Position numbers and translations under genes: made by a program. Source: Escherichia coli O127:H6 str. E2348/69 (lineage in GTDB: Bacteria > Pseudomonadota > Gammaproteobacteria > Enterobacterales > Enterobacteriaceae). Taken from it: a stretch of 64,000 nt of DNA. The notes beneath the pieces were generated by a model. That model was not told the origin of the DNA and made no database searches. It saw only the letters and a program-made list of their open reading frames with translations. Positions 7,458 through 51,469 of this stretch are shown here, in pieces (the stretch's first letter is position 1; each line of letters opens with the position of its first letter). The stretch lies in assembly GCF_000026545.1 (NCBI RefSeq), contig NC_011601.1, one strand, 5' to 3'.

Positions 7458-8786
7458 ATGATGTATCGCATCAGAAATTGGTTGGTAGCGACGTTGCTGC
7501 TGCTGTGCGCGCCGGTGGGTGCCGCGACGCTCTCTGATATTCAGGTTTCTAACGGTAATCAACAGGCACGGATAACGTTGAGTTTTATTGGCGATCCTGA
7601 TTATGCGTTTAGCCATCAAAGCAAACGCACCGTGGCGCTCGATATCAAACAAACGGGGGTAATTCAGGGGCTGCCGTTGTTGTTTAGCGGCAATAATCTG
7701 GTGAAGGCGATTCGCTCTGGAACGCCTAAAGATGCACAAACGCTACGGCTGGTGGTCGATCTTACCGAAAATGGTAAAACCGAAGCGGTGAAGCGGCAGA
7801 ATGGCAGCAATTACACTGTCGTCTTTACGATTAACGCAGATGTGCCACCGCCGCCGCCCGTGGTTGCGAAACGCGTTGAAACGCCTGCGGTTGTCGCACC
7901 GCGCGTCAGCGAACCGGCGCGCAATCCGTTTAAAACGGAAAGTAACCGCACTACGGGTGTTATCAGCAGTAATACGGTAACGCGTCCGGCAGCGCGCGCG
8001 ACGGCTAACACAGGCGATAAAATTATCATCGCTATTGATGCCGGACACGGCGGTCAGGACCCTGGCGCTATCGGCCCTGGTGGTACACGGGAGAAAAATG
8101 TCACCATCGCCATTGCGCGTAAATTACGTACCTTGCTCAATAACGATCCGATGTTTAAGGGCGTTTTAACCCGTGACGGGGATTACTTTATCTCGGTGAT
8201 GGGGCGCAGTGATGTGGCACGTAAGCAAAACGCCAATTTCCTTGTGTCGATTCATGCCGATGCCGCACCAAACCGTAGTGCCACCGGTGCCTCTGTATGG
8301 GTGCTCTCTAACCGTCGCGCCAACAGCGAAATGGCCAGCTGGCTGGAGCAGCACGAGAAACAGTCGGAGCTACTGGGCGGAGCGGGCGATGTGCTGGCGA
8401 ACAGTCAGTCTGACCCCTATTTAAGCCAGGCGGTGCTGGATTTACAGTTCGGTCATTCCCAGCGGGTAGGGTATGATGTAGCGACCAGTATGATCAGTCA
8501 GTTGCAACGCATTGGCGAAATACATAAACGCCGACCAGAACACGCGAGTCTCGGCGTTCTGCGTTCGCCGGATATTCCGTCAGTACTGGTCGAAACCGGT
8601 TTTATCAGTAACAACAGCGAAGAACGTTTGCTGGCGAGCGACGATTACCAACAACAGCTGGCAGAAGCCATTTACAAAGGCCTGCGCAATTACTTCCTTG
8701 CGCATCCGATGCAATCTGCGCCGCAGGGTGCAACGGCACAAACGGCCAGTACGGTGACGACGCCAGATCGCACGCTGCCAAACTAA
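7458..8786 (+). CDS. amiB: N-acetylmuramoyl-L-alanine amidase AmiB
   Basis: ORF 7443..8786; signal peptide [22 protein letters not shown]; amidase_3 domain ([14 protein letters not shown]). Confidence 0.92.
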
Positions 8787-37384: not shown

Positions 37385-37846
<462 letters not shown>

Positions 37847-37867
37847 TTCGTTATTCAACGAGACGTA

Positions 37868-37900
37868 AAAACGCCGACCAGTGGTCGGCGTTTTGCTTTT
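37868..37900 (+). terminator. Intrinsic terminator of the rpsF-priB-rpsR-rplI operon
   Basis: CGCCGACCA-g-TGGTCGGCG perfect 9-bp stem followed by TTTTGCTTTT. Confidence 0.85.
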
Positions 37901-38206
37901 AAGTGATAAAAACCGCAGAAACAGACGTTCCCTCCATAAATCTCTTGTTATTCCTTTTATAAAAAGTTCGCAGTACCCATACCTGGCCCCCAGCCTCGCC
38001 GCTGGTAGTTCGTGTCATGTTTTTTACGCGTAAAACACGACAAAAGCATCAATACAGCGATCGTCTCCCTTGTATGATAATAAAAACAATATGTTATATA
38101 TGAATGTGCTGTTATTTTATTGTTTTTATATATAAAAGGATAAAATATCATCACTTTCGTAATCTTGAACGCTTTGCAGGTGCGTTCAATCCAATAAATG
38201 CTAATA

Positions 38207-38227
38207 TTATGGCTATCATAGCCATAA
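38207..38227. promoter_or_regulatory. Perfect 21-bp palindrome, candidate operator upstream of the HipB-like gene
   Basis: TTATGGCTAT-C-ATAGCCATAA (10-bp arms, 1-bp centre) 20 bp upstream of ORF start 38248; flanked by two ~24-bp near-identical direct repeats (38132-38155 and 38223-38246) containing TAAAAT. Confidence 0.5.
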
Positions 38228-38247
38228 AAAGATAAAATATTATCACT

Positions 38248-38727
38248 ATGGGTAAAAAAACAGCACCGTTACTCCCTTATACGAATCAGATGCTTAGTGA
38301 ATTTGGTGAGCGGCTGAAACTTGCTCGTTTACGACGCAGGCTTACCGCAAAGCAAGTTGCTGAACGTGCTGGGATGTCGCCAATAACATTGCGCTCTCTG
38401 GAGTCAGGAAGTGCAGGGGTCACGATAGGGGCATATTTGTCTGTGATGCAGGTTTTGGGCCTGGAAACGGATTTAAATAAGCTTGCAGCTGAAGACGACT
38501 TAGGGCGTCAGCTCCAGGATTCCCGTTTGATTAAAAAAAGAGGGCTTTCTCGTTCATCAGGTAAAAATGAAGAAGGTATTCAGACAGACCCTTTTCAAAC
38601 GAGGTATGAGAAAGAAGGTTTACTCACCACGGATTTAACAGCACTGGCAGAAGGCTCAACGCCATCTATTACAGGAGAAACATCAACCTCTCTTGCAGCA
38701 CTATTAAAACCGATAAAAAACCGTTAA
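38248..38727 (+). CDS. HipB-like Xre-family HTH protein with long low-complexity C-terminal extension (candidate antitoxin/regulator)
   Basis: 159-aa ORF; [44 protein letters not shown]; start uncertain (alternative ATG at 38290); immediately upstream of HipA-like ORFs. Confidence 0.7.
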
Positions 38728-38740
38728 AAGGAAATTAATT

Positions 38741-39001
38741 ATGGCATTAATCGGAGTGTATGCGGATTGGGAAGGCCTGGATGGTCCGGAGCGGATTGGT
38801 TATTTACACAGTCGCCGCACTCGGACGCGTGAGATATTTGAGTTTGAGTACGATAAAAAGGCGCTTGCAGATCCTTCACTTAATTTCATTCAGTTAGATC
38901 CTGAAATAATGTTGTATGAGGGAGCACAGTACCCAATTCCTCCAAAGGATAAATTTGGTGCATTTAGTGATTCCTGCCCGGATCGTTGGGGCGTATGCTA
39001 A
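38741..39001 (+). CDS. HipA N-terminal-subdomain-like ORF (HipS-like), or 5' part of a frameshifted hipA-family gene
   Basis: 86-aa ORF ending FSDSCPDRWGVC*; resembles HipA N-subdomain; overlaps the next ORF by 16 nt in another frame. Confidence 0.6.
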   Translation: MALIGVYADWEGLDGPERIGYLHSRRTRTREIFEFEYDKKALADPSLNFIQLDPEIMLYEGAQYPIPPKDKFGAFSDSCPDRWGVC

Positions 39002-40008
39002 TGAAGCGTCGTTTTGAGAGGGATATTCGAGACGGGTTATGTGATAAAGACTCCCACCTTTATGAGTCTGATTATCTACTAGGTGTTCATGATCTTTATC
39101 GGGTTGGGGCTCTTCGATACAAACGTGAAGACGCTGGAGAGTTTCTTGATAATCGCATTGATGTTGCAGCCCCACCATTTACCGAAATAGCGAGTCTGGA
39201 AAGGGCTAGCCGGGCAATTGAAGAAGATCCTGATAATAAAGAGCTAATGGGGCAAAAATGGTTAAGAATGCTAATCGCTCCGGGGGGATCATTAGGGGGG
39301 GCACGTCCGAAAGCCAGTGTTGTTGATGAAGCTGGGCATCTCTACATCGCTAAATTTCCCAGTGTAAAAGATGAGTATGATGTTGGTGGATGGGAAATGG
39401 TCGTTAATGCACTTGCTGTTGGCTGTGGACTGAATGTTGCACCTGCTCAGGCGCATAAATTTGCCAGCAATTACCATTGTTTTATGGTTCGTCGTTTTGA
39501 CCGCACTAATGCGGGAAGGCGTCTGCATTTTGCTTCGGCTATGACACTAACCAGGCATCAGGATGGTGAAGATGCCTCTACAGGTGTGAGTTATCTGGAA
39601 TTAGCAGATGTTCTTATCAGGCATGGCGCGCAGACTAATACTGATCTTAAGGAACTCTGGTCCAGGATTGTTTTTAATATTCTTGTTTCTAATACCGATG
39701 ACCATTTACGTAATCATGGATATATCTTGATACCGGGAAAAGGTTGGCGGCTTTCTGAGGCATATGATTTGAATCCTGTTGCCAGGTCTGACGGTCTAAA
39801 ACTCAATATTACAGAAAATGATAATGCACTTGATTTGGAATTAGCTCGAGAAGTTGCGGAGTATTTTCGACTTGGTTTGACAGAAGCAGATGACATTATT
39901 GCTAATTTTAGAGGGATTGTCAGTCAGTGGCGAATCATTGCCGAGCGTCTTCGATTACCTGGTCGTGAGCAAGAGTTAATGGCAGAGGCGTTCAGGGGGG
40001 CAATTTAG
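38986..40008 (+). CDS. HipA-family Ser/Thr protein kinase core (HipT-like toxin candidate)
   Basis: 340-aa ORF (TTG at 38986; in-frame ATGs at 38995, 39001); Gly-rich loop PGGSLGGARPK, catalytic-loop-like SNTDDHLRNHG, AYDLNP motif, corresponding to HipA SVAGAQEK / DGHAKN / YDIIS. Confidence 0.7.
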   Translation: MGRMLMKRRFERDIRDGLCDKDSHLYESDYLLGVHDLYRVGALRYKREDAGEFLDNRIDVAAPPFTEIASLERASRAIEEDPDNKELMGQKWLRMLIAPGGSLGGARPKASVVDEAGHLYIAKFPSVKDEYDVGGWEMVVNALAVGCGLNVAPAQAHKFASNYHCFMVRRFDRTNAGRRLHFASAMTLTRHQDGEDASTGVSYLELADVLIRHGAQTNTDLKELWSRIVFNILVSNTDDHLRNHGYILIPGKGWRLSEAYDLNPVARSDGLKLNITENDNALDLELAREVAEYFRLGLTEADDIIANFRGIVSQWRIIAERLRLPGREQELMAEAFRGAI

Positions 40009-40106
40009 AATAGTTATTTTGATATATTCGCTAAATCATAAATTTGCGAAGCAATGCCAGTAGATACTGAACGTTTTGGAAGAGACGTTTAATTTATGAG
40101 AAAAAT

Positions 40107-40139
40107 AGAAACGCTACAAAGCTAAATTATAGCGTTTCT
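40107..40139. terminator. Candidate bidirectional terminator between convergent HipT-like gene and MFS transporter gene
   Basis: 9-bp inverted repeat AGAAACGCT ... AGCGTTTCT with 15-nt loop, A/T-rich flanks. Confidence 0.45.
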
Positions 40140-40150
40140 ATGTAAAATAA

Positions 40151-41428
40151 TTAGCTTGTCGCTAACTGTACTTGTGGTTCTTCGTCTTTAACTTTGATAA
40201 GCATCCACAGCGCAATGGCGCCAATAATGTCAAAGAAAGCCAGGGCAATAAAGAACGGCGCGAAGCCAATAATGTGAACGAATGCCCCGATAAACAGGTT
40301 GAAAATCAACTGACCGCTCCATGCACAGGCTCCTGCCATACCCACAGCGGTAGCTACTTCGTCTTTTTTGAATAGGTCACCGCCCAGAGTTGCTGCAACA
40401 GTAGAAAGACATTGATGCGAGAATGCGCCAATGCTAATCAGTAATACGGCGATGTAGGGATTTTCGACAATACTCACCAGACCAATCGTCATCATAATGA
40501 CGGCTGCAATAGTGAAGGTAATTCTTCGTGAGTTAATTAAACTCACGCCGCGATCGTGGAAGAACTTCGCGACAAAACCACTGGCTAAACAGCCGAGATC
40601 GCCCAGCAGGAAAGGCAGCCAGACGAACATGGCAATTTCTTTCAGGCTAAAATGCAGCGTTTCGACGAAGAAAATCGGTACCCAGAAGTTAATGGTTCCC
40701 CATGCCGGGTCAGCGAGAAAACGCGCGATGCCAATCCCCCAGAAATTACGTTGGCTGAGGATATGCTTGATTGACGTTTTTTCTTTCTTATCTGTTTTAA
40801 GATGCTGTTCTTGCCCAGACTCAATATAGTGGCGCTCTTCATCAGAAAGGCGTTTAGCATCTTTTGGATCTTTATAACAAAAGAACCAAAATAAAGCCGC
40901 GAGTAAAGCAAGGCTACCTGAGACAATAAACGCAAATTGCCAGCTATGAAACATAATGCACCAGGCAATCAACGGTGGAGCAAGCATCGCGCCGAGTGAG
41001 GTGCCCATATTGAAAACACCTGTCGCCACGCCACGCTCTTTTGCCGGGAACCATGTTGATGCGGTTTTTACACCCGCAGGAATTGCCGATGCTTCGCTGA
41101 AACCCATCAGGGCGCGCATAAATGCCAGACCTGACCATGTTCCTGTCAAGGCATGCCCCATTGTCGCCAGGCCCCAGATTGCGGCACATATCGCAAAACT
41201 TAACTTCAGACCCACGGTATCAATAAAGAAGCCCATTATCGGTTGCCCCAATGTATAGGCCAACTGGAATGCACTGACAATCCATGAATATTGTTCTTTG
41301 GTTATTCCGGTTGTCTCCATAATCGTTGGAGCCGCAATACCTAACGCCGTTCTGTCCAGATAATTGATTACAGTGATAAAGCATACGAGGGCAATCATAT
41401 GCCATCGATAATTCTTTATTTTATTCAT
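40151..41428 (-). CDS. MFS transporter, anion:cation symporter (ACS) family (ExuT/GarP/DgoT-like organic-acid transporter)
   Basis: 425-aa ORF, ~12 TM segments, N-terminal YLDRTALGIAAP motif typical of ACS-family sugar-acid transporters. Confidence 0.8.
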   Translation of the reverse strand: MNKIKNYRWHMIALVCFITVINYLDRTALGIAAPTIMETTGITKEQYSWIVSAFQLAYTLGQPIMGFFIDTVGLKLSFAICAAIWGLATMGHALTGTWSGLAFMRALMGFSEASAIPAGVKTASTWFPAKERGVATGVFNMGTSLGAMLAPPLIAWCIMFHSWQFAFIVSGSLALLAALFWFFCYKDPKDAKRLSDEERHYIESGQEQHLKTDKKEKTSIKHILSQRNFWGIGIARFLADPAWGTINFWVPIFFVETLHFSLKEIAMFVWLPFLLGDLGCLASGFVAKFFHDRGVSLINSRRITFTIAAVIMMTIGLVSIVENPYIAVLLISIGAFSHQCLSTVAATLGGDLFKKDEVATAVGMAGACAWSGQLIFNLFIGAFVHIIGFAPFFIALAFFDIIGAIALWMLIKVKDEEPQVQLATS

Positions 41429-41520
41429 TTTTAAACCTTTTAATTATATTAATAAACCCTGGTTATTGGTATTTCCATGTAATAGGCAATAAAAATCAGG
41501 TACAGAGGAAATATTGAAAA

Positions 41521-43593
41521 TTATTGTGTGTAAATGTCTCCCTTTAAAAAGTCTGGCCAGTTTTTTTCAAAGTAAATACCGTTAATACACGGTTGAATAC
41601 GTAAAGACTTTACTTCGGTAATAAAAGAACCTTGCGAATATTGAATTGTTAATTTGTGATTTTTGTCTTCAGCGAGTTCAGAGCGAAAACGCCATTCTTC
41701 TTTTGCGCCGCGACGAGTTTGTGGTAGGCATTTGCCTTGTGGATCAATAACCATACGCGCCCCACGGCTACCACCACCAGCATCAATATAATGCGTTAAT
41801 TGTGTTAATACCGCGGCAGAAGTCAGCGCCATATGCCGCCACATAAACAGCTCGGCAACTTCACCCACATGTTTGATTGCCAATCCATGCCGTTGCACAA
41901 ATTCACTCAATAGCAGGGCATCACGAGTGGCGCGTCGGACTTTATCGGCATGGCAAATAAATCCCGCATGGTCAGACATTCGTGCCTGAATTTTTTCTCT
42001 CACAACCGACAACGGCATCCCGGTCCCGTTATCGTGCGCCTGAGTAATGATCTCTCTTATAGAAGCCAGTGCCGGAGCTGCCAGCTGTGCAATATCTCCA
42101 TCAATATTCCGCTTTTGCGTGCAACCAATAAAGCGCGCCAGACGAACAGCAAAAACCTGCCCGGCATTCAACGCCGCGCCGCCAGGTCGGGTGACGCCGT
42201 GTGTGCCAGCAACTTCCCCCACCGCAAAACAACCGGGCAGAGATGTTTGTCCCCAGATATCGACTTCAATGCCGCCATTCATGTGCTGATTATTCATGGC
42301 AAACTGCAATGGCTGCGTGATGAGATCGTAACCGTGCATCTTATACAGCGAGATAGACAGAGGATTCATTCGTTGCAGGCGTTCGATGGGCGATGGTGCC
42401 AGAGCGTCGTTATTTTCCAGATACGTGCGAACGTCGTCGTCCAGTCGATCTAATGAGAACGGCAGGTCACCCGGCACAGGTTCAGGATTGCGATTGAAAT
42501 CCATAAATACCTGACGCCCTGATTGCTGCTCTTGCGCCACCGCCATATCTAACAAGCTGGAGCCAAAATCCATTACCCGCGTGGCGTGGAATGGCCACTG
42601 ATAGCCTTTACGGAAGATGTTTGAAGCCAACTCCTGGGTGGTGCGATAGTAATCTGCGAGGAAGTTATACTCGTTGCCCCCAGCATCCACGGAATAGATA
42701 TATGGGATCACCTGTACATAGGTGCCGGACAAATTCCACGGAAACGTGCTGCGCGGTGTGCCGATACCAAACTGGCTTTCAGTCAGATTCGTTAACGTCA
42801 GACCTTCCTCCAGCGCCAGCCCCAGCGAGCCGAAACATTTGTGTGGATACACACTGTCGCGATAAAGCTCGCCAGGCCCGCCTGTTGCCAGTACCACATT
42901 GGGTGCAGTCACAATTGCCAGCCCCCATGGGTTATGGGCGCGATGACCGGTCGCGAGGATTGCCCCCGCCACACGGTCTTCACCGTTTTCGTCACGCTGA
43001 TGCAGCAGTTTAATCACTGTTGCACTGGTCAACATTGGGATAGCAAGACGCTGTACTTCTTCCAGCAGCACTTTCACCATTAACCTTGAGGTACGCGGCC
43101 CACACGAGGTTGCACGCCCGGCTTCGTCGTGGTCGGTTTGATAACGAAGAATCGCGCCATAGCGATCTTCCGGTAATTCCAGACCAAGATATTGCAACCC
43201 GCCAAGAGTGTGCAGAGAACCTACCGCTTCAACATAAGCGGTGTCGTGATCCATCGCCCCACCGCTCGCCAGTGCCTCTGCCAGTTTGGCGAAGTTGTCG
43301 CCGTTGCCCGCGGTAGCGGCGGTAAACAGTGTTTGTTTATCAGAGCCAGAACATGCCGACGTCCCCATATATAACCCGGCGGTGGCGATTAACACATTTT
43401 GCTGGCGGCGTTTAAGTTCCACAGCTGCACGCAGCCCGGCTGCACCACTGCCGACTACCAGGGCATCTGTTTTCCAGAGTGGGTAATCAACACCGTCTAC
43501 CGTGACAACCCATGCGGGGTCTGCCTGTGCAAAACCCTTTGGGAAAGTAACGTGCGTCAGCGCATCAAGGATGGTGTCATCAAGCTGACTCAT
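41521..43593 (-). CDS. FAD-binding oxidoreductase (fumarate reductase/succinate dehydrogenase flavoprotein-like superfamily)
   Basis: 690-aa ORF with Rossmann dinucleotide motif ALVVGSGAAGLRAAVEL near N-terminus; start codon overlaps upstream gene stop (ATGA). Confidence 0.7.
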   Translation of the reverse strand: MSQLDDTILDALTHVTFPKGFAQADPAWVVTVDGVDYPLWKTDALVVGSGAAGLRAAVELKRRQQNVLIATAGLYMGTSACSGSDKQTLFTAATAGNGDNFAKLAEALASGGAMDHDTAYVEAVGSLHTLGGLQYLGLELPEDRYGAILRYQTDHDEAGRATSCGPRTSRLMVKVLLEEVQRLAIPMLTSATVIKLLHQRDENGEDRVAGAILATGHRAHNPWGLAIVTAPNVVLATGGPGELYRDSVYPHKCFGSLGLALEEGLTLTNLTESQFGIGTPRSTFPWNLSGTYVQVIPYIYSVDAGGNEYNFLADYYRTTQELASNIFRKGYQWPFHATRVMDFGSSLLDMAVAQEQQSGRQVFMDFNRNPEPVPGDLPFSLDRLDDDVRTYLENNDALAPSPIERLQRMNPLSISLYKMHGYDLITQPLQFAMNNQHMNGGIEVDIWGQTSLPGCFAVGEVAGTHGVTRPGGAALNAGQVFAVRLARFIGCTQKRNIDGDIAQLAAPALASIREIITQAHDNGTGMPLSVVREKIQARMSDHAGFICHADKVRRATRDALLLSEFVQRHGLAIKHVGEVAELFMWRHMALTSAAVLTQLTHYIDAGGGSRGARMVIDPQGKCLPQTRRGAKEEWRFRSELAEDKNHKLTIQYSQGSFITEVKSLRIQPCINGIYFEKNWPDFLKGDIYTQ

Positions 43594-45131
43594 GCATCCT
43601 CCATCGGCGTAAACAGGCTGCTTTCCATCAGACGTGGGTGCCTGATAATCGGACGGAAGGCCATGAATGGCAGAATGTCGCGCTCAATCTCTACGCCAGG
43701 GGCGATCTCAATTAATTCAACGCCTTCTGCCGTTAACTGGAATACCGCACGTTCGGTGATATACAGCACTTCCTGACCGCTTTGCTGTGCGTAGGCGGCG
43801 CTAAAGGTGATTTTTTCCACCAGGGCAACCAATTTAGGGATTTGACCTGACTGGGCGATATGCAAGCCATCTGGCGTTACATCAATCTTGCTGCCTTTGG
43901 CGTCGAACGTACCGCAAAACACCACTTTACGGGCGTTTTGTGCAATTTCGAGAAATCCGCCGGGGCCAATGAGATTGCCATTAAGATGGGATACGTTGAC
44001 GTTACCGTACCGATCCATCTCTCCCATGCCGAGGAAGGTGATATCGATACCGCCGCCACTGTAGAATTCGAATTGATCGAGTGATGGAATAATGGCATCG
44101 GCGTTACGGGCGCAGCCGAACAGAGCATCATCCAGCATCATGCCGTTATGTACACCCTGTTCTACACTCAGCCACAAACTTTGATAAGGCACGCCTTCGC
44201 GCAGCGCAACCCCAGGAATACCGCCGGGAATACCAAAGCCAAAGTTGGTTGAAGCGCCTGCCACCAGTTCCCGCGCTGCCCGACGGGCAATCAGGCGACG
44301 CACCGGATGACTAACCAGTTCAATAGCGTCGTTAGAACTTAGACGGCGATGTTGACCGCTGATGGTCAGGTCGTAACCGCCAAGATAGGTTTGCGGTTGT
44401 TCGCGGTGCTCAACGATGCCATCGACCAGAATTCCTGGTAGCTTGACCCGACGTGGTTCAATGGTACCTGCTTCCAGCACATCGCGGACCTGTACGAACA
44501 CTTTGCCGCCGCTGTTGTGTGCTGCCAGCGCCATCGAATAGCTATCCATATAAATCGCTTCTTCTTCGAGGCTAACGTTGCCTCGTGGATCGGCATAAGT
44601 GCCACGCAAAATCGCGTAATCCACTTTGAAAGGGCGATAACGAAGTTTGGTCTCACCGTCGATTTCAATCAGTTCTACCAGGTCGTCGGTAGTGCATTCA
44701 TTCGACTTACCGCCGCCATTGCGTGGATCAACAAACGATCCCAGCCCAACGTGGGTAAAAAGCCCCGGACGTCCGGCACCGATCTCCCGCAGCAGTGCCT
44801 GAATTACGCCACCAGGGAAACAGTAGGCTTCAATAGCATTGCTTTTCACCAGTTCCTGCATCTTGGGCGACCAGGTAAAATGTCCGGCAATAATGCGTTT
44901 GAGCATTTCGGCGTGAGCAAAACGGTTAGTGCCTTTGCTGTCGCGATCGCCAATACCCAGCGAGTGGATTAATGTCAGATCGCGCGGGTGTCCGGTTTGC
45001 AGGAAACGCGCTTCAATGGCGGCCAGAATATGGTCAGCTTCCACCATACCGCCGCCGTTACCGCTAATGGCAATGGTTGCGCCGTCCTGAATTTGCGCCG
45101 CCAGTGTCTCGGCGGTTGATAACTTACGCAT
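43590..45131 (-). CDS. Family-I acyl-CoA:acetate/3-ketoacid CoA-transferase (fused alpha/beta, YdiF-like)
   Basis: 513-aa ORF; N-terminus MRKLSTAETLAAQIQDGATIAISGNGGG and overall layout resemble fused family-I CoA-transferases. Confidence 0.75.
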   Translation of the reverse strand: MRKLSTAETLAAQIQDGATIAISGNGGGMVEADHILAAIEARFLQTGHPRDLTLIHSLGIGDRDSKGTNRFAHAEMLKRIIAGHFTWSPKMQELVKSNAIEAYCFPGGVIQALLREIGAGRPGLFTHVGLGSFVDPRNGGGKSNECTTDDLVELIEIDGETKLRYRPFKVDYAILRGTYADPRGNVSLEEEAIYMDSYSMALAAHNSGGKVFVQVRDVLEAGTIEPRRVKLPGILVDGIVEHREQPQTYLGGYDLTISGQHRRLSSNDAIELVSHPVRRLIARRAARELVAGASTNFGFGIPGGIPGVALREGVPYQSLWLSVEQGVHNGMMLDDALFGCARNADAIIPSLDQFEFYSGGGIDITFLGMGEMDRYGNVNVSHLNGNLIGPGGFLEIAQNARKVVFCGTFDAKGSKIDVTPDGLHIAQSGQIPKLVALVEKITFSAAYAQQSGQEVLYITERAVFQLTAEGVELIEIAPGVEIERDILPFMAFRPIIRHPRLMESSLFTPMEDA

Positions 45132-45140
45132 ACAATTTCC

Positions 45141-45923
45141 TTATTGATTGTGGAAGCTCACGCCGGCTTTTTCGGCAAATGCGTGCGTCGCCTGTTGGCA
45201 ATCCTGAGTGGCGGACATTAATCCAGCCAGTAACTGGTGGGAGTAATCGGCGTGTTTATTTTCCAGCGCCAGAATCAGTTGCTTAATATGTGCCAGTGCC
45301 ACCGGACCACATTTTTCCAGCTGCGCTAACTGGTTCACCATCCAGCTTTCCACCTGTTCTTTTTCTACCACTTCATCAATTAAATTCGCTGTCTGAGCTT
45401 CCTGCGCCGTCAGGCGTTTACCCAGCATCAGCATCTGGCGACCGACCACCGGGCCAACCTGATTAAGCACGCGTTCAATGCCCATCCAGCCAGGCACCAT
45501 GCCGAGCATCACTTCCGGGTTAGAGAATTTCGCGCCGGGGCGAGCGATACGAATATCACAGCACAAGGCGAGTTCAATCCCACCGCCAATGGTATGACCG
45601 TTGAGATTTGCAACCGTTAATTGGGGTAAATTGCGCAGGCGATTAAAAACCTCGTTACCGCGTTTAATCCATTTTCTGCCCATATCTAATGGCGAATAGG
45701 CCGACCACGATTTAATATCGCCGCCCGCACAAAAGAATTTATCGCCGGTTGCCGTTAATTCGACTAATCGTAATGTGGTGTCGTTTTCAATTTCATTTAA
45801 ATAATGGTCGAGAGATTCGATCATTTCTTCATTAATAGCATGACATTTATCTTCACGGTTCAATGTCAGGCGGCAAGAAGCCGCCGCTCTGCTGAACAGA
45901 ACGGGTTGGTCATTCATGATCAT
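45141..45923 (-). CDS. Enoyl-CoA hydratase/isomerase (crotonase superfamily)
   Basis: 260-aa ORF with crotonase oxyanion-hole motifs FCAGGDIK and NGHTIGGG. Confidence 0.75.
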   Translation of the reverse strand: MIMNDQPVLFSRAAASCRLTLNREDKCHAINEEMIESLDHYLNEIENDTTLRLVELTATGDKFFCAGGDIKSWSAYSPLDMGRKWIKRGNEVFNRLRNLPQLTVANLNGHTIGGGIELALCCDIRIARPGAKFSNPEVMLGMVPGWMGIERVLNQVGPVVGRQMLMLGKRLTAQEAQTANLIDEVVEKEQVESWMVNQLAQLEKCGPVALAHIKQLILALENKHADYSHQLLAGLMSATQDCQQATHAFAEKAGVSFHNQ

Positions 45924-45926
45924 TCC

Positions 45927-46769
45927 TTAACAATAATGTGCGATGCGATCGACGCTAATATCCAGCGTGCTGTTAATATCTTTCTGCCACCAGTACGGTG
46001 AGAATATTTCCAGTTCAATAGCGCCATTAAATCCGGCGTTTTCAACCAGCCGACGAATTGACGGAATATTGATGACACCATCTCCCGGCATTCCACGGTC
46101 ATTGACCAGATCGGTGGTCGGCACTAACCAGTCGGAAACATGAAACGCGAGGATGCGTTTTCCGGCACGCAGGATCTGACTGGCGAGATCCGGGTCCCAC
46201 CAGACATGGTAGACATCTACCGCCACGCCGAGGCCAAATTCGCCATCGGGATCGAGTTCATCACACCAGTCCAGCGCCTGACGTAACGTGCACAGACAAG
46301 AACGATCGGCAGCAGTCATCGGGTGCAGTGGCTCCAGTGCAATTGGCACGCCGACCTCTTTCGAATGTGGCAGCAACTGGCGAATCCCTTGTTTCACCTG
46401 TTCCCGTGCTTCGTACAGATCTTTTGTTCCCATTGGCAGACCGCCAACCACCTGCATATAACAGGCGGCGTTCAGTACAGCGGCGTCGTCCAGCGCCCGG
46501 CGGTTATCGTCAATCGCCAGTTTGCGCTCCGCCAGCGTCGGTGCGGTGTAGTAGGTGCTACGGCACAAACCGGAAACGTTCATGTTACTGGCAGCAAGCT
46601 GGCGGGCGATTTGCTGGAGATCTTCACTCTGCAACTCCCTGCGCCAGGGGGCAATCGCGCCAATACCGCGTGCGGCGCAGGCATCAATAATGGCGGGTAG
46701 CGGCGTTTTATAGCCCAGTGTCGCGGTATTGATACTGAATAAATCCGGGCGTTGTAACAGATCTCTCAT
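45927..46769 (-). CDS. Sugar phosphate isomerase/epimerase-like TIM-barrel protein (xylose-isomerase-like fold)
   Basis: 280-aa ORF; pattern resembles AP-endonuclease-2 / xylose-isomerase-like TIM-barrel proteins (weak, by eye). Confidence 0.55.
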   Translation of the reverse strand: MRDLLQRPDLFSINTATLGYKTPLPAIIDACAARGIGAIAPWRRELQSEDLQQIARQLAASNMNVSGLCRSTYYTAPTLAERKLAIDDNRRALDDAAVLNAACYMQVVGGLPMGTKDLYEAREQVKQGIRQLLPHSKEVGVPIALEPLHPMTAADRSCLCTLRQALDWCDELDPDGEFGLGVAVDVYHVWWDPDLASQILRAGKRILAFHVSDWLVPTTDLVNDRGMPGDGVINIPSIRRLVENAGFNGAIELEIFSPYWWQKDINSTLDISVDRIAHYC

Positions 46770-46778
46770 GATTCAGCC

Positions 46779-47570
46779 TCAGAAGCGCGGCATACTTAAG
46801 CCGCCGTCGATGGCGACCGCCTGACCACAGGTGTAAATCAGTTTACCTTCCGCCATCGCGCGGACAGTGGAAGCAATATCAGCCGGATAACCCCAACGTC
46901 CCCACGGCACCAGACCTTTGGCAATCAGTTCGTCGTAATAGGCCGTTGCCGGAATAGTCATATCGGTTTTGATGAGACCAGGACGCACTTCATATACGCC
47001 AATTTGTTCATTACAAAGGCGAGCAGCAAACAGACGAGCAGCGGCAGAGACGGCAGTTTTGGCAATGGTATATTCGCCGCGATTCATCGCCAGCATGATG
47101 GCGTTGATGGAACTGACAAAAATAATCGAGCGGTGCGGCAGTTCTGCTTCCGGTTTCGGCTGTGCCAGTAAGCGCTTACTGAATGCCTGAGCAAGGAAGA
47201 ACGGTGCGCGGGTGTTAATGGCAATATTTTGGTCGAAGCTGTCTGGTTCGAGGTCGAGAAGGTCACCGCGTTTTTTCACTGAAATGCCTGCGTTGTTGAG
47301 CAGGCAGTCCAGACGTCCCCACTGGTTTTGCGCTGCGTCGAGCATCTCTTCATGCAGGGAGAGATCGCCCACATCAGCAGGGAAGCAAATCACTTCCACG
47401 CCTTCCGCCAGACATTCTTGTTGTGTGGCATGTAATTTTTCTACGCTATCGGCATCCGGACGATCATTAATCAGCAGATTAAATCCGCCACGCGCAAGCT
47501 CCAGCGCACAGCCTTTTCCAATACCACGTGCGGCTCCGGTAATCACGGCAACAGGACGAGTGGATTTCAT
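46779..47570 (-). CDS. Short-chain dehydrogenase/reductase (SDR)
   Basis: 263-aa ORF with TGAARGIG cofactor motif, NNAG, catalytic YxxxK (YTIAK). Confidence 0.85.
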   Translation of the reverse strand: MKSTRPVAVITGAARGIGKGCALELARGGFNLLINDRPDADSVEKLHATQQECLAEGVEVICFPADVGDLSLHEEMLDAAQNQWGRLDCLLNNAGISVKKRGDLLDLEPDSFDQNIAINTRAPFFLAQAFSKRLLAQPKPEAELPHRSIIFVSSINAIMLAMNRGEYTIAKTAVSAAARLFAARLCNEQIGVYEVRPGLIKTDMTIPATAYYDELIAKGLVPWGRWGYPADIASTVRAMAEGKLIYTCGQAVAIDGGLSMPRF

Positions 47571-47783
47571 ACAATAGCTCTCTTTTTTTTGAATTTTGTT
47601 TCCTTAGTGATGATTAGCTTGCGACTGGAGGGTAAAAAGATCAACCATCTAGTTGGTTGATATGCGATGGCGATCACAGGACATTTGATAACCTGATGAA
47701 AGTACAAGTTTTTGCCCTTTTTTCTGAAGCTGAAATCAAATCAGGTTATGATAGTCACCACGAAGAGGTCGTGGGGAAGCGTT

Positions 47784-48431
47784 ATGTATCTTGATACCAG
47801 CAACGTACAGAGCCTGAAAGAAAAGCTGCTGTTATGCGCGGTTAATGAATTTGCCGAATATGGTTACGAAGGGGCCAGAGTCGATAATATCGTCAAGGCC
47901 GCGGGGTGCAGTAAACAGACGGTTTATCACCACTTTGGTAATAAAGAAAATTTATTTATCGAAGTACTGGAATATACCTGGAACGATATTCGACAAAAAG
48001 AAAAGGCCCTTGATTTCTCAGATCTTCCGCCACAGAAAGCCATTGAGAAAATAATCGATTTTACATGGGATTATTATATTTCTAATCCCTGGTTTTTAAA
48101 AATTGTGCATAGTGAAAATCAAAGTAAGGGTGTGCATTATGCAAAATCACAGCGTCTTTTAGAAATTAACCATGCGCACTTGCAGTTAATGGAATCCTTA
48201 TTGGATGAAGGGAAGAAACAAAATATTTTTAAGCCAGATATCGACCCATTGCAGGTGAATATTAATATTGCTGCGCTTGGGGGATATTATTTGATCAACC
48301 AGCATACGCTTGGCCTGGTTTATCACATCAGTATGGTTTCACCGCAGGCACTGGAAGCCAGACGTAAGGTCATCAAAGAGACAATCCTTAGCTGGCTTTT
48401 GGTTGACCCTTCATCTACCGCGCGCGAATAA
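47784..48431 (+). CDS. TetR/AcrR-family transcriptional regulator, divergent from the catabolic operon
   Basis: ORF 47712..48431; likely start ATG 47784 (MYLDTSN) preceded by GGGGAAG; Tet[32 protein letters not shown]. Confidence 0.8.
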
Positions 48432-49053
48432 AACTGCCATCCGGCTGGCGGGTAAACAGGACCTGTTGATTATTCCCCGTATCAATGGTTAAGCCCGTCA
48501 CCACGCCGCTGGCGTTCTGGCGGATTTTCACCATCTGCCCGTTTTGCAAATTACTCAGTGGCTTATCCGCGCCTTCTACCTGCGCCATGGCATAGACATC
48601 GGTAGCGGGCAGTCCGTGGTCGCGGAACAGCTGCGCCATCGTTTTACCGGGTTCGACACGATAGGAGCGCCATTGATTATCAATTCCGCTATCTGGCTGG
48701 AATGGTTGCGTATGGGTGGTTTGCGGCTGCTCTTCTGGCTGGCCTTCCTGTATTGGTTCTGGAGCGACCGGAGCCACCTGATCAGGATCATTTTGTGGCG
48801 TGACTAATTGCGCCCGCAGCTGTTCTTCTGTCGGTGGTTGTGATTGCGACTGAATATCTAACTGCGCTTCACGCGTCACCACCGGCGCGTTGGGCGTATC
48901 ATCAGATGGAAGCAGAAATCCGACCACCAATACAATGGCGGCAATAATGATCCCCCGACGATGCATCGGCGGCAGCGGGTCCATGAAGCGAAAATTGTCC
49001 GGCGCGTGCCAGACTTTCTCCAGGGTTGGTTTTAGTTCAAAGCGCCCGGGCAT
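48415..49053 (-). CDS. ytfB: Cell-division/opacity-associated protein YtfB (OapA, LysM-like)
   Basis: ORF 48415..49089; start at [23 protein letters not shown]; TM segment and Pro/Gln-rich linker; 3' end overlaps TetR gene 3' end by 17 bp. Confidence 0.88.
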
Positions 49054-49270
49054 GGTTTCCTCCTGCTCCGCGTCTTGTTCCTCAATCATAGCCTATGAAT
49101 AAGCTAACGCTATGATGTCCGTGGTAAACCCGCCTTTATTATATTCATACGGGATATTGCTATTGTTTCTTTTTCCCCGGGATTTGTCATCATTCCCGCG
49201 ACAAAGTTTTACCCAAAGAAGTGTGGCTGATATGCTGCCCGCTACTTTATACCCTAAGAAAGGAAATACG

Positions 49271-49891
49271 ATGACCACCCCAACTTTTGACACCATCGAA
49301 GCGCAAGCAAGCTACGGCATTGGTTTGCAGGTAGGGCAACAACTGAGTGAATCTGGCCTGGAAGGGCTGCTGCCAGAAGCACTGGTTGCAGGCATTGCCG
49401 ATGCGCTGGAAGGCAAACATCCGGCTGTTCCGGTTGATGTGGTGCACCGCGCGCTGCGTGAAATCCACGAACGCGCCGATGCCGTTCGTCGTCAGCGTTT
49501 CCAGGCGATGGCTGCTGAAGGTGTGAAATACCTGGAAGAAAACGCCAAAAAAGAAGGTGTAAATAGCACCGAATCTGGCCTGCAATTCCGCGTGATCAAC
49601 CAGGGTGAAGGCGCAATTCCGGCACGTACCGACCGCGTTCGTGTTCATTACACCGGAAAACTGATCGACGGCACCGTGTTTGACAGCTCCGTTGCTCGCG
49701 GCGAGCCAGCTGAATTCCCGGTTAACGGCGTGATCCCTGGCTGGATTGAAGCACTGACTCTGATGCCGGTAGGTTCTAAATGGGAACTGACTATCCCGCA
49801 GGAACTGGCATATGGCGAGCGTGGCGCAGGCGCGTCCATCCCTCCGTTCAGCACCCTGGTGTTTGAAGTCGAACTGCTGGAAATCCTCTAA
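49271..49891 (+). CDS. fklB: FKBP-type peptidyl-prolyl cis-trans isomerase FklB
   Basis: ORF 49112..49891; start at [22 protein letters not shown] (ATG 49271); FKBP domain. Confidence 0.93.
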
Positions 49892-49919
49892 GCAGCGCAT
49901 TCTGTTCCCCTCGAACCAG

Positions 49920-51469
49920 CTGTCTCTTATACACAAATCCCCACCCGGGGATTTGTGATGTCTGTCAGTCTGCTTTAGGGGGACTCTTTCCATCCGGTAG
50001 TTTCCTTCCTCCCCGGCAGCGATTTTTTGAACTTTTTCCTCACCTGTTGATCTTCTCTTATATTTCATTTTCTTCGGGTCTGTTATGGTACTTTCTGATT
50101 GTTATTCATGGGCTAACGAGCAGTTTGGACATGCCCGTCTCGGTGATCCGCGTCGTACACGACGCCTTGTGTCACTGGCCTCTTCTCTCGCTCAGCATGC
50201 AGGTCTTTCTATTGTGAAATCATCCCAGTCCACTGCTCAGGTTGAAGGTGCGTACCGCCTGATACGTAACCCGTCTGTGTCCCCGCAAGCCATTGCCGAA
50301 GCCGGATTTACCGCCACTGTAAGGGCATGTGAGGCTCATCCGCTGCTCCTCGCGCTGGAAGACACCACCACCATTAACTTCAGTCACAGTACGGCATCTG
50401 ATGACCTGGGGAATACCACCACTAACCCGAAGACGCGCGGGCTGCTGGCTCACTCTGTCCTGATGTACGCCCCCGACAGCGCCCTGCCAGTCGGTCTTAT
50501 CGAACAGCAGCGCTGGAGTCGTGCCACGGACACCTACGGTGTTAAGCACCAGCGAAAAGAACGTCCCTATGAAGAAAAAGAAAGTTACCGCTGGCAGCAG
50601 GCTTCGGAGCGCATGGCCGAACGGCTGGGGGAGATACAGAAACGGGTAATCACTGTCTGTGACCGGGAAGCGGATATCTGGCATTACCTGCATTATAAAG
50701 TCAGCCACGGGCAGCGCTTCGTGGTGCGTGCAGCACAGAATCGCCGGCTGGAAGAAGCACCCGGCAAGCTCTTCGAACTGCCGGAAGTCCTGGCAACCGC
50801 GGGAAGCCACACGCTGAATGTGATGCAAAAAGGCGGGCGGGCAGCCCGCCAGGCCCGGATGTTCATCAGTTACAGCGAAGTCAGCATAAAAAATCCCGAC
50901 AACAGCGGCCAGGCGCTCCCGCTCACGTATGTCTGTTGCCGGGAGCAGGCAGAGGACGGCGCCTGCTGGCATCTGCTGACGTCAGAAAAAGTGGCGAGTG
51001 CCGCCGATGCGCGACGTATCGTCAGCCATTACGAGCGACGCTGGCTGATAGAGGAATACCACAAGGCGTGGAAAAGTGGTGGTACATGTGTGGAATCGCT
51101 GTGAATGCAGACCCGGGATAACCTCGAGCGCATGGTGGTTATCAAGGCGTTTATCGCGGTGCGGGTGCTGGGCCTGCGGCAGGGCGGTATCAGTGAAGAA
51201 ACACAAAATGACAGCTGTGAGAAAATACTGACGCCGACAGAGTGGAAACTGCTGTGGGTTAAGCTGGAAGGAAAACCGCTTCCGTCACAGATGCCGACAC
51301 TGAAATGGGCCTGTCTGAAACTGGCGAAACTGGGGCGATGGCATGACAGCAAACGCACCGGTCGCCCCGGTTGGGTAGTCATGTGGGATGGCTGGTTCAG
51401 ACTTCAGGATATGGTTGAGGGTTACCTGGTGATGAAGTCTCTTGATCAGGAGATCTGATCAAGAGACAG
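49920..51469 (+). mobile_element. IS50-like insertion sequence (IS4 family), ~1.55 kb, with terminal inverted repeats and ~9-bp flanking direct repeats
   Basis: Left end CTGTCTCTTATACACAAAT (49920-) and right end AGATCTGATCAAGAGACAG (-51469) match IS50 OE/IE-type ends; flanks CGAACCAG at 49912-49919 and 51470-51477; internal transposase homologous to Tn5 Tnp. Confidence 0.85.
50085..51458 (+). pseudogene. IS50-like DDE transposase interrupted by in-frame TGA (339-aa + 117-aa fragments)
   Basis: ORFs 50085..51104 and 51105..51458 share one frame, separated by TGA at 51102-51104; Tn5-Tnp-like motifs GDPRRT, ALEDTT, CDREADI, RWLIEEYHKAWK in the first part and DNLERMV / DSKRTG in the second. Confidence 0.8.

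Follow-up and report, generated by a model that had tools for sequence, protein, structure and literature searches.

The locus studied here raises the question of which compound is imported and converted by a group of genes whose database names are generic without exception. It lies in the analysed window, 64,000 nucleotides of the EPEC strain Escherichia coli O127:H6 E2348/69, where six minus-strand open reading frames (ORFs; 40151-47570) are packed together beside a divergent TetR-family ORF. All seven ORFs were intact and 100% identical to the RefSeq annotation of E2348/69, at the positions given in the initial annotation, and the family assignments made there also proved right. In order of transcription, the minus strand encodes a classical SDR dehydrogenase (263 aa, 46779-47570), a xylose-isomerase-like (AP_endonuc_2) TIM-barrel enzyme (280 aa, 45927-46769), a crotonase-fold enoyl-CoA hydratase (258-260 aa, 45141-45923; the PGAP start is ATG 45917, and ATG 45923 is possible too), a family I (YdiF-type) fused alpha/beta CoA-transferase (513 aa, 43590-45131), a stand-alone flavoprotein with FAD_binding_2 domain (690 aa, 41521-43593), and an ACS-family MFS anion:cation symporter (425 aa, 40151-41428). 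Literature searches revealed no functional work on the cluster, and no expression or phenotype data for it were found; the earlier statement that it is not a named E. coli pathway holds.

The spacing along the operon is 9, 9, 9, -4, and 92 bp, and a Shine-Dalgarno-like motif precedes every gene. The negative value reflects an ATGA overlap at 43590-43593, where the stop of the CoA-transferase gene overlaps the start of the flavoprotein gene. The only strong terminator is intrinsic and closes the operon directly past the MFS stop (40105-40141, minus strand; 15-bp stem, 7-nt loop, T-run); a consensus scan gave a few weak minus-strand terminator-like matches inside the operon, with a total of 7 vs a shuffle expectation of 9.9. 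The sole sizeable gap is the AT-rich 92-bp spacer ahead of the transporter gene (41429-41520, minus strand), where a promoter-like match at 41548-41520, a consensus match alone, makes an internal promoter possible. The MFS gene has a GC content of 0.47 vs 0.49-0.55 for the enzyme genes. The hipBA genes next to the cluster are pseudogenes.

The regulator gene occupies 47784-48431 on the plus strand. Its start is most likely ATG 47784 (215 aa), because PGAP calls this codon and the Salmonella and Klebsiella homologues have 215-216 aa; both points disfavor the upstream TTG 47712. Homologues carry TetR_N and TetR_C_29 domains. In the divergent control region (47571-47783), which had no Rfam match, we found the inverted repeat ATCAACCATCT/AGTTGGTTGAT (palindrome 47640-47661). 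Both E. coli variants, E. albertii, K. oxytoca, and S. enterica share an unchanged core, CAACCAAC(T/C)AGATGGTTGATC, between flanks that diverge. This 20-bp palindrome, kept across Escherichia, Klebsiella, and Salmonella within a diverging intergenic region, is probably the TetR operator, and it backs the earlier proposal of one compact operon under the divergent TetR gene. Without substrate, the regulator would occupy the palindrome between both promoters, and it would leave on binding the substrate or an intermediate.

Of 5426 complete E. coli genomes, 3097 contain 80% or more of the cluster; about 40% of E. coli, K-12 and O157 among them, have lost it by deletion. K-12-like and O157 genomes keep only the part corresponding to window positions 48029-48431 (query 7879-8281), a 3' stump of the TetR gene annotated as a pseudogene without its N-terminus; judged by sequence, K-12 'ytfA' is this 3' remnant. 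In Klebsiella oxytoca and Salmonella enterica, rplI and ytfB flank the same seven genes. Given this synteny and the deletion relic in K-12, the term 'island' used in the initial annotation is misleading, and the gene order indicates that the cluster is no recent island. A few E. coli entries contain truncated or fused ORFs of the cluster. It could be considered that the genes are a decaying, non-functional leftover that is intact in E2348/69 by chance, a reading in keeping with the deletion in about 40% of strains, with the adjoining hipBA pseudogenes, and with the damaged ORFs just mentioned. However, dN/dS was 0.025-0.067 for the five enzymes and the TetR protein against K. oxytoca and S. 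enterica (dS is saturated, so that the ratios are approximate), and values of about 0.03-0.07 between genera indicate strong purifying selection. These selection data contradict the leftover reading, and the seven intact ORFs, the conserved operator, and the more than 3000 complete genomes that retain most of the cluster also make it highly improbable. The seven-gene unit is real, well conserved, and never studied, and more than half of E. coli strains carry it.

For the flavoprotein, Pfam gave FAD_binding_2 only (residues 43-475), and no acyl-CoA dehydrogenase (ACAD) domain was found. Foldseek comparison of its AF2 model (pLDDT 90) gave FrdA/SdhA as best matches over the full length, with 14-19% identity and TM scores of 0.65-0.79. 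When it was aligned with E. coli FrdA using hhalign, H355 and R390 corresponded to conserved H437 and R469, whereas His44, H232/T234, and E245 were not conserved. On this alignment, His437 and Arg469 are retained carboxylate-binding residues; given the several missing FrdA catalytic residues, the chemistry may nevertheless be something else entirely. The family comprises 415 representative clusters at E<1e-30 and is unnamed, as is every AFDB neighbor. The last ~90 aa of the protein have a mosaic pattern when E. coli variants are compared.

The CoA-transferase aligns end-to-end with E. coli YdiF (2ahu; phmmer E 9e-116), and its Glu324 matches Glu333, the catalytic residue of YdiF. The crotonase has both catalytic Glu positions, within GGGIELAL and PE motifs; its best NCBIfam match, short-chain enoyl-CoA hydratase, is under the cut-off, and its best PDB match is the C3 hydroxyacyl-CoA dehydratase 5zai (3-hydroxypropionyl-CoA dehydratase, 2.7e-40). 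The SDR contains TGxxxGIG and YxxxK motifs and scores 420 bits to PRK12745 (cut-off 250), a generic name, as are the molecule names of its best PDB matches (4da9 and 4one). The TIM barrel matches the uncharacterised SMc04130 (3qc0/3ju2, 1.2e-85) and 7vpf (5.9e-62); its nearest characterised relatives, IolI (2e-5) and ketose 3-epimerases, are distant (E 1e-4 to 1e-7), and its NCBIfam matches to IolO, Hyi, and OtnI are weak.

The initial annotation had proposed a beta-oxidation-like route for a CoA-activated, imported acid. In full, the transferase would activate the acid, the flavoprotein would desaturate it as an ACAD equivalent, the crotonase would hydrate it, and the SDR would oxidise it as a 3-hydroxyacyl-CoA dehydrogenase. 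There is one candidate gene for each of these four steps, the crotonase keeps both glutamates, the SDR is FabG-like, the CoA-transferase and flavoprotein genes overlap, and true acyl-CoA dehydrogenases, ETF, and MaoC hydratases are encoded at some related loci. The FrdA/SdhA/NadB-type fold with His437/Arg469 and without an ACAD domain argues against it, as does the lack of a thiolase or ligase in the cluster, and the TIM barrel would be left without a role. Moreover, most members of the flavoprotein family have no CoA enzymes nearby, and the SDR and the TIM barrel accompany the flavoprotein, not the CoA enzymes. The route is poorly supported, and we consider it unlikely.

The genomic company of the flavoprotein family was counted among 72 loci. 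An SDR occurred in 25, a KdgK-like PfkB kinase in 16, a KDPG aldolase in 12, and Gfo/Idh/MocA proteins in 14 + 9; usually, the neighbors are sugar or sugar-acid genes. The same TIM-barrel enzyme and sugar transporters recur elsewhere. LacI regulators also occur, as do GH28 and BNR_4 genes and a sugar ABC transporter with a binding protein that resembles glucose-binding-protein structures; the BNR_4 family includes the PL42 and PL25 uronate lyases. Brenneria, Pseudescherichia, Phytobacter, and Mangrovibacter carry the SDR, TIM barrel, flavoprotein, and TetR gene without CoA enzymes, each with an MFS acid transporter. The CoA-transferase/crotonase pair stands beside the flavoprotein gene in varied orders in a betaproteobacterium, Devosia, Rhodobacter, and Rubellimicrobium, and a Desulfobacterales locus has the CoA-transferase with a crotonase about 5 kb off. 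This distribution indicates a conserved core of SDR, TIM barrel, and flavoprotein, with the CoA pair as an accessory module that recurs.

Enoate reductases, such as those acting on urocanate, acrylate, or cinnamate, are common among stand-alone FAD_binding_2 enzymes. In a reductive, carnitine (cai)-like scheme, a hydroxy acid would receive CoA from product-CoA, the crotonase would dehydrate it, the fumarate-reductase-like flavoprotein would reduce the enoyl group as an electron sink, and the reduced acid would be released. The combination of transporter, CoA-transferase, crotonase, and flavoprotein, with neither ligase nor thiolase, parallels caiTABCDE, and an OYE-flavoprotein fusion (P0149) and OYE neighbors in the family suggest electron input or ene-reduction. 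However, the frequent KDG-kinase-like and KDPG aldolase neighbors are catabolic and carbon-yielding, the SDR and TIM barrel are unexplained, and the E. coli cluster encodes no electron-donor partner, which makes such a scheme doubtful.

The MFS protein matches TIGR00893 (D-galactonate transporter subfamily) with 314 bits, under the cut-off; its name in IMG is 'ACS family hexuronate transporter-like'. It is just 50-51% identical to the MFS proteins of the Klebsiella and Salmonella clusters, and other E. coli have TRAP DctPQM in its place. Two divergent ACS-MFS types and a TRAP system alternate in this slot, all assigned to carboxylate types, which supports the organic-anion import suggested earlier. 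The TRAP binding protein is only moderately close to hexuronate binders (242 bits); its closest solved structures include 4N91 and 4MHF, which bind D-glucuronate/D-galacturonate (PMC7660916).

In the triad-only enterics, the MFS is of the aromatic-acid/H+ symporter type, with 369 bits to the PcaK model in Brenneria, and would fit cyclic or aromatic acids equally, a point against a uronate-like substrate. With a quinate/shikimate-like or hydroxycyclohexane-carboxylate substrate, the SDR could form the ring ketone, the flavoprotein could serve as a ring desaturase or reductase of the KstD/ChcC type, and the TIM barrel could work like a dehydroshikimate dehydratase. 3-Dehydroshikimate dehydratases belong to the same TIM-barrel superfamily, one related locus (L014) has a cyclohexanecarbonyl-CoA-dehydrogenase-like ACAD, and the flavoprotein N-terminus weakly matches the NCBIfam model of a ring desaturase, 4-oxocyclohex-2-ene-1-carboxylate 5-dehydrogenase (E 6e-5). 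That ChcC2 match is limited to the dinucleotide-binding motif, however, and the kinase, aldolase, GH28, BNR_4, and sugar-ABC contexts, like the hexuronate-binding TRAP relatives, point to sugars; a carbocyclic or aromatic acid appears even less likely than the two CoA-based schemes.

We favor, with a probability of about one half, a substrate-inducible catabolic unit for a hydroxylated organic acid, with a uronate- or keto-deoxy-uronate-type sugar acid as the most probable substrate; three carboxylate transporter types in the same slot point to a carboxylate substrate. Since E. coli has complete glucuronate and galacturonate pathways, some different acid would be needed. By family and context, the acid would enter via the ACS-family MFS here and via TRAP in other E. 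coli, and the free acid would be handled by the three-enzyme core. The SDR would form a ketone by oxidising a hydroxyl on a ring or chain, the TIM barrel would isomerise or eliminate beside that carbonyl, by analogy with its distant relatives IolI, IolO, Hyi, and OtnI, and the flavoprotein would add or remove a C-C double bond beside the carboxylate held via His437/Arg469. Against a free-acid flavoprotein, the ATGA coupling to the CoA-transferase gene would suit an acyl-CoA substrate equally. A short-chain product would go to the CoA-transferase and crotonase, which as a couple would transfer CoA, hydrate or dehydrate, and hand CoA back or over to housekeeping enzymes; such recycling or passing on of CoA would account for the absent ligase and thiolase. 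The order of reactions is a guess. Most likely, the cluster combines an unusual enzyme mix for the import and breakdown of a sugar-acid-like compound.

The flavoprotein shares with FrdA/SdhA and NadB the four-domain fold over its full length and the FAD_binding_2 domain, and with FrdA the counterparts of His355 and Arg390, but it lacks the covalent-FAD histidine and the H232/T234/E245 equivalents, carries an additional, strain-variable beta-rich segment at its C-terminus, and, unlike complex II, is encoded without Fe-S or membrane partners. The CoA-transferase shares the fused family I architecture of the acyl-CoA:acetate/3-ketoacid CoA-transferase YdiF (PDB 2ahu) and is a paralogue in another genomic context, not YdiF itself. 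Keto-sugar pathways that oxidise and then isomerise or eliminate (inositol IolG/IolE/IolI/IolO, levoglucosan LgdA/LgdB, and tetronate LtnD/OtnI) likewise pair an NAD(P)-dependent dehydrogenase with a xylose-isomerase-like TIM barrel, and in related loci these are joined by a PfkB kinase, an aldolase, and Gfo/Idh/MocA proteins resembling levoglucosan dehydrogenase; none of these pathways is known to use a FrdA-fold flavoprotein or CoA enzymes, and their TIM barrels are only distantly related to ours. Flavoprotein loci of the PVC group resemble the KduI/KduD-KdgK-Eda system in their KduD-like SDR, KdgK-like kinase, KDPG aldolase, GH28, and BNR_4 genes, whereas the E. coli cluster has neither kinase nor aldolase, and we know of no step in that route that needs a flavoprotein. 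The caiTABCDE operon, also for a polar organic acid, has in common a transporter, CoA-transferase, crotonase, flavoprotein, recycled CoA, and the lack of ligase-independent thiolysis; however, CaiA is of the acyl-CoA dehydrogenase family and CaiB is a family III transferase, and it has no SDR or TIM-barrel gene and no TetR control. The deoxyribonate pathway of Klebsiella michiganensis processes a sugar acid in the form of CoA thioesters, and this enterobacterial cluster shares MFS transporters and a CoA-transferase with ours (PMC6365646). It lies at a different locus and encodes a CoA-synthetase, beta-hydroxyacyl-CoA dehydrogenase, thiolase, lactonase, and glycerate kinase, and, unlike the E. 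coli cluster, it has no FrdA-like flavoprotein, TIM barrel, or crotonase (PMC6365646).

The cluster sequence was 100% identical to the EPEC E2348/69 chromosome across 8281 bp, and the ORF listing agreed with the initial annotation in placing six minus-strand genes beside a divergent TetR gene. In operon order, the minus-strand genes encode an SDR (46779-47570), a xylose-isomerase-like TIM barrel protein (45927-46769), a crotonase (45141-45917 or 45923, two starts being possible), a CoA-transferase (43590-45131), a 690-aa FAD_binding_2 flavoprotein (41521-43593), and an ACS-type MFS transporter (40151-41428). Successive genes are spaced by 9, 9, 9, -4, and 92 bp, and a Shine-Dalgarno-like motif was present 5' of every start. 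The terminator scan located a strong hairpin with a T-run immediately 3' of the final gene (40141-40105) and gave a few weak minus-strand matches inside the operon; terminator-like matches overall numbered 7, compared with 9.9 in shuffled sequence. Rfam searches over 37500-50500 detected no riboswitch and no other RNA family. From this operon anatomy, we infer that the six genes are co-transcribed.

The TetR regulator was assigned the start ATG 47784 (215 aa) and is transcribed divergently from the operon; the alternative start TTG 47712 was set aside because PGAP places the start at ATG 47784 and the Salmonella and Klebsiella homologues are of similar length to the 215-aa product. NCBIfam TetR-family models cover residues ~30-180 of the protein, and the Pfam domains TetR_N and TetR_C_29 were found on its homologues. 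The 213-bp divergent region contains an inverted repeat of 11+11 nt (47640-47661). When this region was aligned for both E. coli variants of the cluster, E. albertii, K. oxytoca, and S. enterica, the palindrome core CAACCAAC(T/C)AGATGGTTGATC was unchanged across the three genera while the flanking sequence diverged, a pattern expected of an operator, and we consider this palindrome the candidate TetR operator. A second block conserved across genera, ATGACTATCATAAC, lies directly upstream of the TetR start codon (~47745-47760) and may serve as the promoter of that gene or as an additional binding site.

Of 5426 complete E. coli genomes, 3097 contain 80% or more of the cluster. As estimated from an evenly spaced sample of the match list, roughly 30% of E. 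coli genomes carry the MFS form found in E2348/69, about 27% carry a second form, and in about 40% nothing is left but the final 403 bp of the TetR gene. The second form has the same TetR and five enzyme genes, with the MFS gene exchanged for a DctPQM TRAP transporter. In K-12-type genomes, the 403-bp remnant lies beside yjfZ and is annotated as a TetR pseudogene lacking its N-terminus, ytfA. The O157:H7 remnant is split further by IS609, encoding TnpA and TnpB/InsQ (locus L091, 4002-6151). The 3' ends of the convergent TetR and ytfB genes overlap by 17 bp (48415-48431), an overlap that persists in K-12 and may be the reason why the TetR 3' stump stayed there.

K. oxytoca and S. enterica have the complete seven-gene unit in the identical rplI-ytfB interval, with enzymes that are 77-94% identical to those of E. 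coli. The dN/dS values of the enzymes and TetR against these two species were 0.025-0.067, ratios that are approximate because dS is saturated. Given this synteny, identity, and low dN/dS, the comparisons indicate a unit that is ancestral, has been lost repeatedly, and is under purifying selection, rather than a recently acquired island; the term island in the initial annotation does not suit a unit held at the same place in other genera and left as a remnant in K-12. Two neighboring features differ between genomes. Between rplI and the MFS gene (38248-40008), the window contains a hipB/hipA-like toxin-antitoxin pair, annotated as two frameshifted pseudogenes, with very low GC3 (0.33-0.35); in TRAP-variant E. 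coli, K. oxytoca, and S. enterica, the pair is missing and an EamA gene takes its place. An IS4-like ISEc13 transposase gene is inserted between fklB and cycA (50085-51458), and K-12-like and O157 genomes do not have it at this site.

Pfam assigned FAD_binding_2 alone to the flavoprotein (residues 43-475), and its sequence matches in the PDB (SdhA, NadB, and FrdA) were weak, at about 1e-8. Its NCBIfam scores were all far under the cut-offs. The AlphaFold model (pLDDT 90) showed a full-length FrdA/SdhA fold at 14-19% identity (Foldseek E 5e-30, TM 0.65-0.79, about 670 columns), and Foldseek returned no solved structure closer than FrdA/SdhA. In the FrdA family, His355 and Arg390 grip the substrate carboxylate, and hhalign to E. 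coli FrdA showed that both have kept counterparts, His437 and Arg469. Although the fold is common to the respiratory subunits, hhalign placed no histidine at the covalent-FAD position (FrdA His44), QFG replaces FrdA H232-P-T234, E245 is not conserved, and genes for Fe-S or membrane-anchor subunits were found neither in the cluster nor in 80 related loci.

The flavoprotein family comprises 415 representative clusters at E<1e-30 and is without a name. Its AFDB neighbors, whose names are generic throughout, come from Proteobacteria, Planctomycetota, Verrucomicrobiota, Lentisphaerota, Firmicutes, Spirochaetes, Coriobacteriia, and one Asgard archaeon. Some E. coli entries (P0003 and P0030) join CoA-transferase residues 1-386 and the flavoprotein in one ORF, a join that probably reflects a deletion or frameshift where the two genes overlap (ATGA) rather than a functional fusion. 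An Old-Yellow-Enzyme (OYE) domain is naturally fused to one family member (P0149), and OYE is encoded beside a member, or fused to it, at five loci (L063, L071, L073, L075, and L082); this association hints at enone/enoate chemistry or at an electron-input partner.

The CoA-transferase, which has alpha and beta CoA_trans domains, could be aligned end to end with YdiF (2ahu; E 9e-116), and its Glu324 pairs with YdiF Glu333, which we take to be the catalytic residue. NCBIfam and PDB matches (ECH_1 fold) span the full length of the crotonase, in which GGGIELAL and NPE motifs provide both catalytic glutamates, as assigned by motif alone. The nearest solved relative of the crotonase is a 3-hydroxypropionyl-CoA dehydratase, and this closeness suggests that its substrates are short. 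The SDR contains the cofactor motif TGAARGIG and the catalytic motif YTIAK. It matched PRK12745 with 420 bits, making it the only cluster protein to exceed a curated NCBIfam cut-off, but the model name is generic, as are the molecule names of its best solved relatives, 4da9 and 4one. The TIM barrel protein has an AP_endonuc_2 fold (Pfam PF01261 on orthologues; PDB matches 3qc0, 3ju2, 7vpf, and 1i60) and is about 58% identical to SMc04130 (3qc0/3ju2, deposited as uncharacterized) and about 50% identical to 7vpf, for which no paper was found. Similarity to IolI, IolO, Hyi, OtnI, and ketose 3-epimerases was remote, and membership in these characterized subfamilies was rejected at 22-29 bits against cut-offs of 300-353.

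The initial annotation did not recognize the cluster as a named E. coli pathway, and we likewise found no evidence that it is a known one. PGAP, UniRef, IMG, NCBI, NCBIfam, Pfam, PDB, and Foldseek (PDB and AFDB50) offered generic names only, and literature searches with ytfA, the E2348/69 locus tags, SMc04130, the related PDB entries, and the enzyme combinations retrieved nothing on function.

To place the flavoprotein in its wider gene context, we took 80 reference-genome loci with the flavoprotein family, located counterparts of the E. coli proteins in them, and sorted every neighboring protein into clusters. Across 72 loci, the commonest neighbors were SDRs (25), KdgK-like PfkB kinases (16), KDPG aldolases (12), and the same TIM barrel protein as in E. 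coli (12), together with Gfo/Idh/MocA dehydrogenases akin to levoglucosan dehydrogenase (14 + 9). Alphaproteobacterial loci additionally contain a LacI regulator, two GMC oxidoreductases, and a sugar ABC transporter whose binding protein matches a solved 'ABC sugar transporter' binding protein and a 'glucose-binding protein'. Outside the Proteobacteria, mostly in the PVC group, the same-strand neighbors were SDR (11), KDPG aldolase (9), PfkB (5), BNR_4 (5), OYE (4), and GH28 (3). Pfam BNR_4 takes in a PL42 rhamnose-glucuronate lyase and a PL25 ulvan lyase, both of which yield unsaturated uronates. Five Phycisphaerae-type loci (L060, L064, L068, L081, and L086) share a conserved block of UvrA, an OYE/GltD-like fusion, SDR or another gene, KDPG aldolase, BNR_4, the flavoprotein, in some cases PfkB, and an MtnA-like isomerase, and this block is an uncharacterized sugar-acid locus of its own.

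Several plant-associated enterics have the triad of SDR, TIM barrel, and flavoprotein without CoA enzymes: Brenneria, with TetR divergent from SDR-TIM-flavoprotein-MFS, and Pseudescherichia, Phytobacter, and Mangrovibacter, with TetR divergent from SDR-Gfo-TIM-MFS-flavoprotein. The MFS proteins of these units are of the aromatic-acid/H+ symporter type. Among the examined loci, apart from the Escherichia/Salmonella/Klebsiella type, just four have the CoA-transferase and crotonase pair beside the flavoprotein gene; these loci are unrelated, differ in gene order, and come from a betaproteobacterium (which also has TRAP, MaoC, ACAD, and ETF), Devosia, Rhodobacter, and Rubellimicrobium. A Desulfobacterales locus combines CoA-transferase, MaoC, ACADs, and an IlvD/Edd sugar-acid dehydratase, with a crotonase match about 5 kb off. 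Since triad units occur without CoA enzymes and the CoA pair recurs in unrelated loci, we read the operon as two putative modules, an old SDR/TIM/flavoprotein core that would act on a free acid resembling a sugar, and a CoA add-on that turns up repeatedly.

These results bear on the beta-oxidation-like route that the initial annotation had drawn from the CoA-transferase, crotonase, SDR, and flavoprotein. Pfam found no acyl-CoA dehydrogenase (ACAD) domain in the flavoprotein and the cluster contains no ACAD gene; no thiolase, lyase, aldolase, or other C-C cleaving enzyme is encoded between rplI and ytfB; and the family-wide gene context fits such a route less well than an operon for a hydroxylated acid. 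We therefore regard beta-oxidation as improbable. A reductive scheme of the cai type also fits the family-wide context more poorly, and we think it quite unlikely.

The transporter slot has had at least three occupants: the ACS-MFS of E2348/69, the ACS-MFS of Klebsiella and Salmonella, which is just 50-51% identical to it, and the TRAP DctPQM. The boundary of the MFS/TRAP exchange falls inside the flavoprotein gene (41521-41790, the C-terminus), such that the two E. coli forms share 47-64% identity over the last ~90 residues of the flavoprotein and 96-100% over the remainder. Judged by homology, every version appears to import carboxylates. The best NCBIfam match of the MFS protein was TIGR00893 (314 bits; curated cut-off 395), and IMG automatically assigned it the name 'hexuronate transporter-like'. 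Among the top matches of the TRAP binding protein (about 200-240 bits), the solved relatives include 4N91, a D-glucuronate binder, and 4MHF, a D-glucuronate/D-galacturonate binder; 4N15 served as the template for a glucuronate-binding Salmonella protein (PMC7660916). The TRAP relatives and the IMG name, along with the kinase, aldolase, GH28, and BNR_4 genes near family members elsewhere, point indirectly to a putative uronate-type or keto-deoxy sugar acid substrate. On the other hand, E. coli already consumes glucuronate and galacturonate via other genes. A cyclitol or an aromatic acid is also in play, because the triad-only clusters use aromatic-acid-type transporters.

The best-supported model, to which we give a probability of about one half, is a TetR-repressed, substrate-induced operon for a hydroxylated acid. 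The acid would be taken up by the transporter, the triad would carry out keto-sugar-type chemistry on the free acid, and the CoA-transferase/crotonase couple would perform CoA transfer and hydration on a short product. Within this model, we are far more confident that the operon serves to break down an organic acid than that this acid resembles a uronate. We advance only tentatively, as a rather unlikely extension, that the flavoprotein is the E. coli member of a large, uncharacterized stand-alone FrdA-fold class acting on free sugar acids (for example, unsaturated or keto-deoxy uronates) and that the operon is a new, partly CoA-dependent gut uronate-type route. If true, this route would open a nutrient niche, closed to K-12, to more than half of E. 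coli strains as well as to K. oxytoca and to some Salmonella.

The cluster is an orphan pathway in an organism that has otherwise been studied intensively, carried by most complete E. coli genomes and by related enteric pathogens and commensals, and it escaped study because it is deleted in K-12 and O157. Naming its substrate would give a function to a FrdA-like family of hundreds of 50%-identity clusters, from Proteobacteria to Asgard archaea, and to the structural-genomics orphans SMc04130 (3qc0/3ju2) and 4da9. A strain-specific nutrient niche, with a bearing on gut colonization, is possible, and simple assays are feasible given the conserved candidate operator, the small regulator, and the soluble TRAP binding protein of the sister variant.

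The CoA-dependent deoxyribonate pathway of K. michiganensis was considered as a known counterpart and rejected, as it has a distinct locus and a distinct gene set, with CoA-synthetase, hydroxyacyl-CoA dehydrogenase, thiolase, lactonase, and glycerate kinase (PMC6365646). It serves purely as a conceptual precedent for CoA-activated sugar acids. The E2348/69 cluster is real and uncharacterized, and it represents an unusual version of a familiar type of system.
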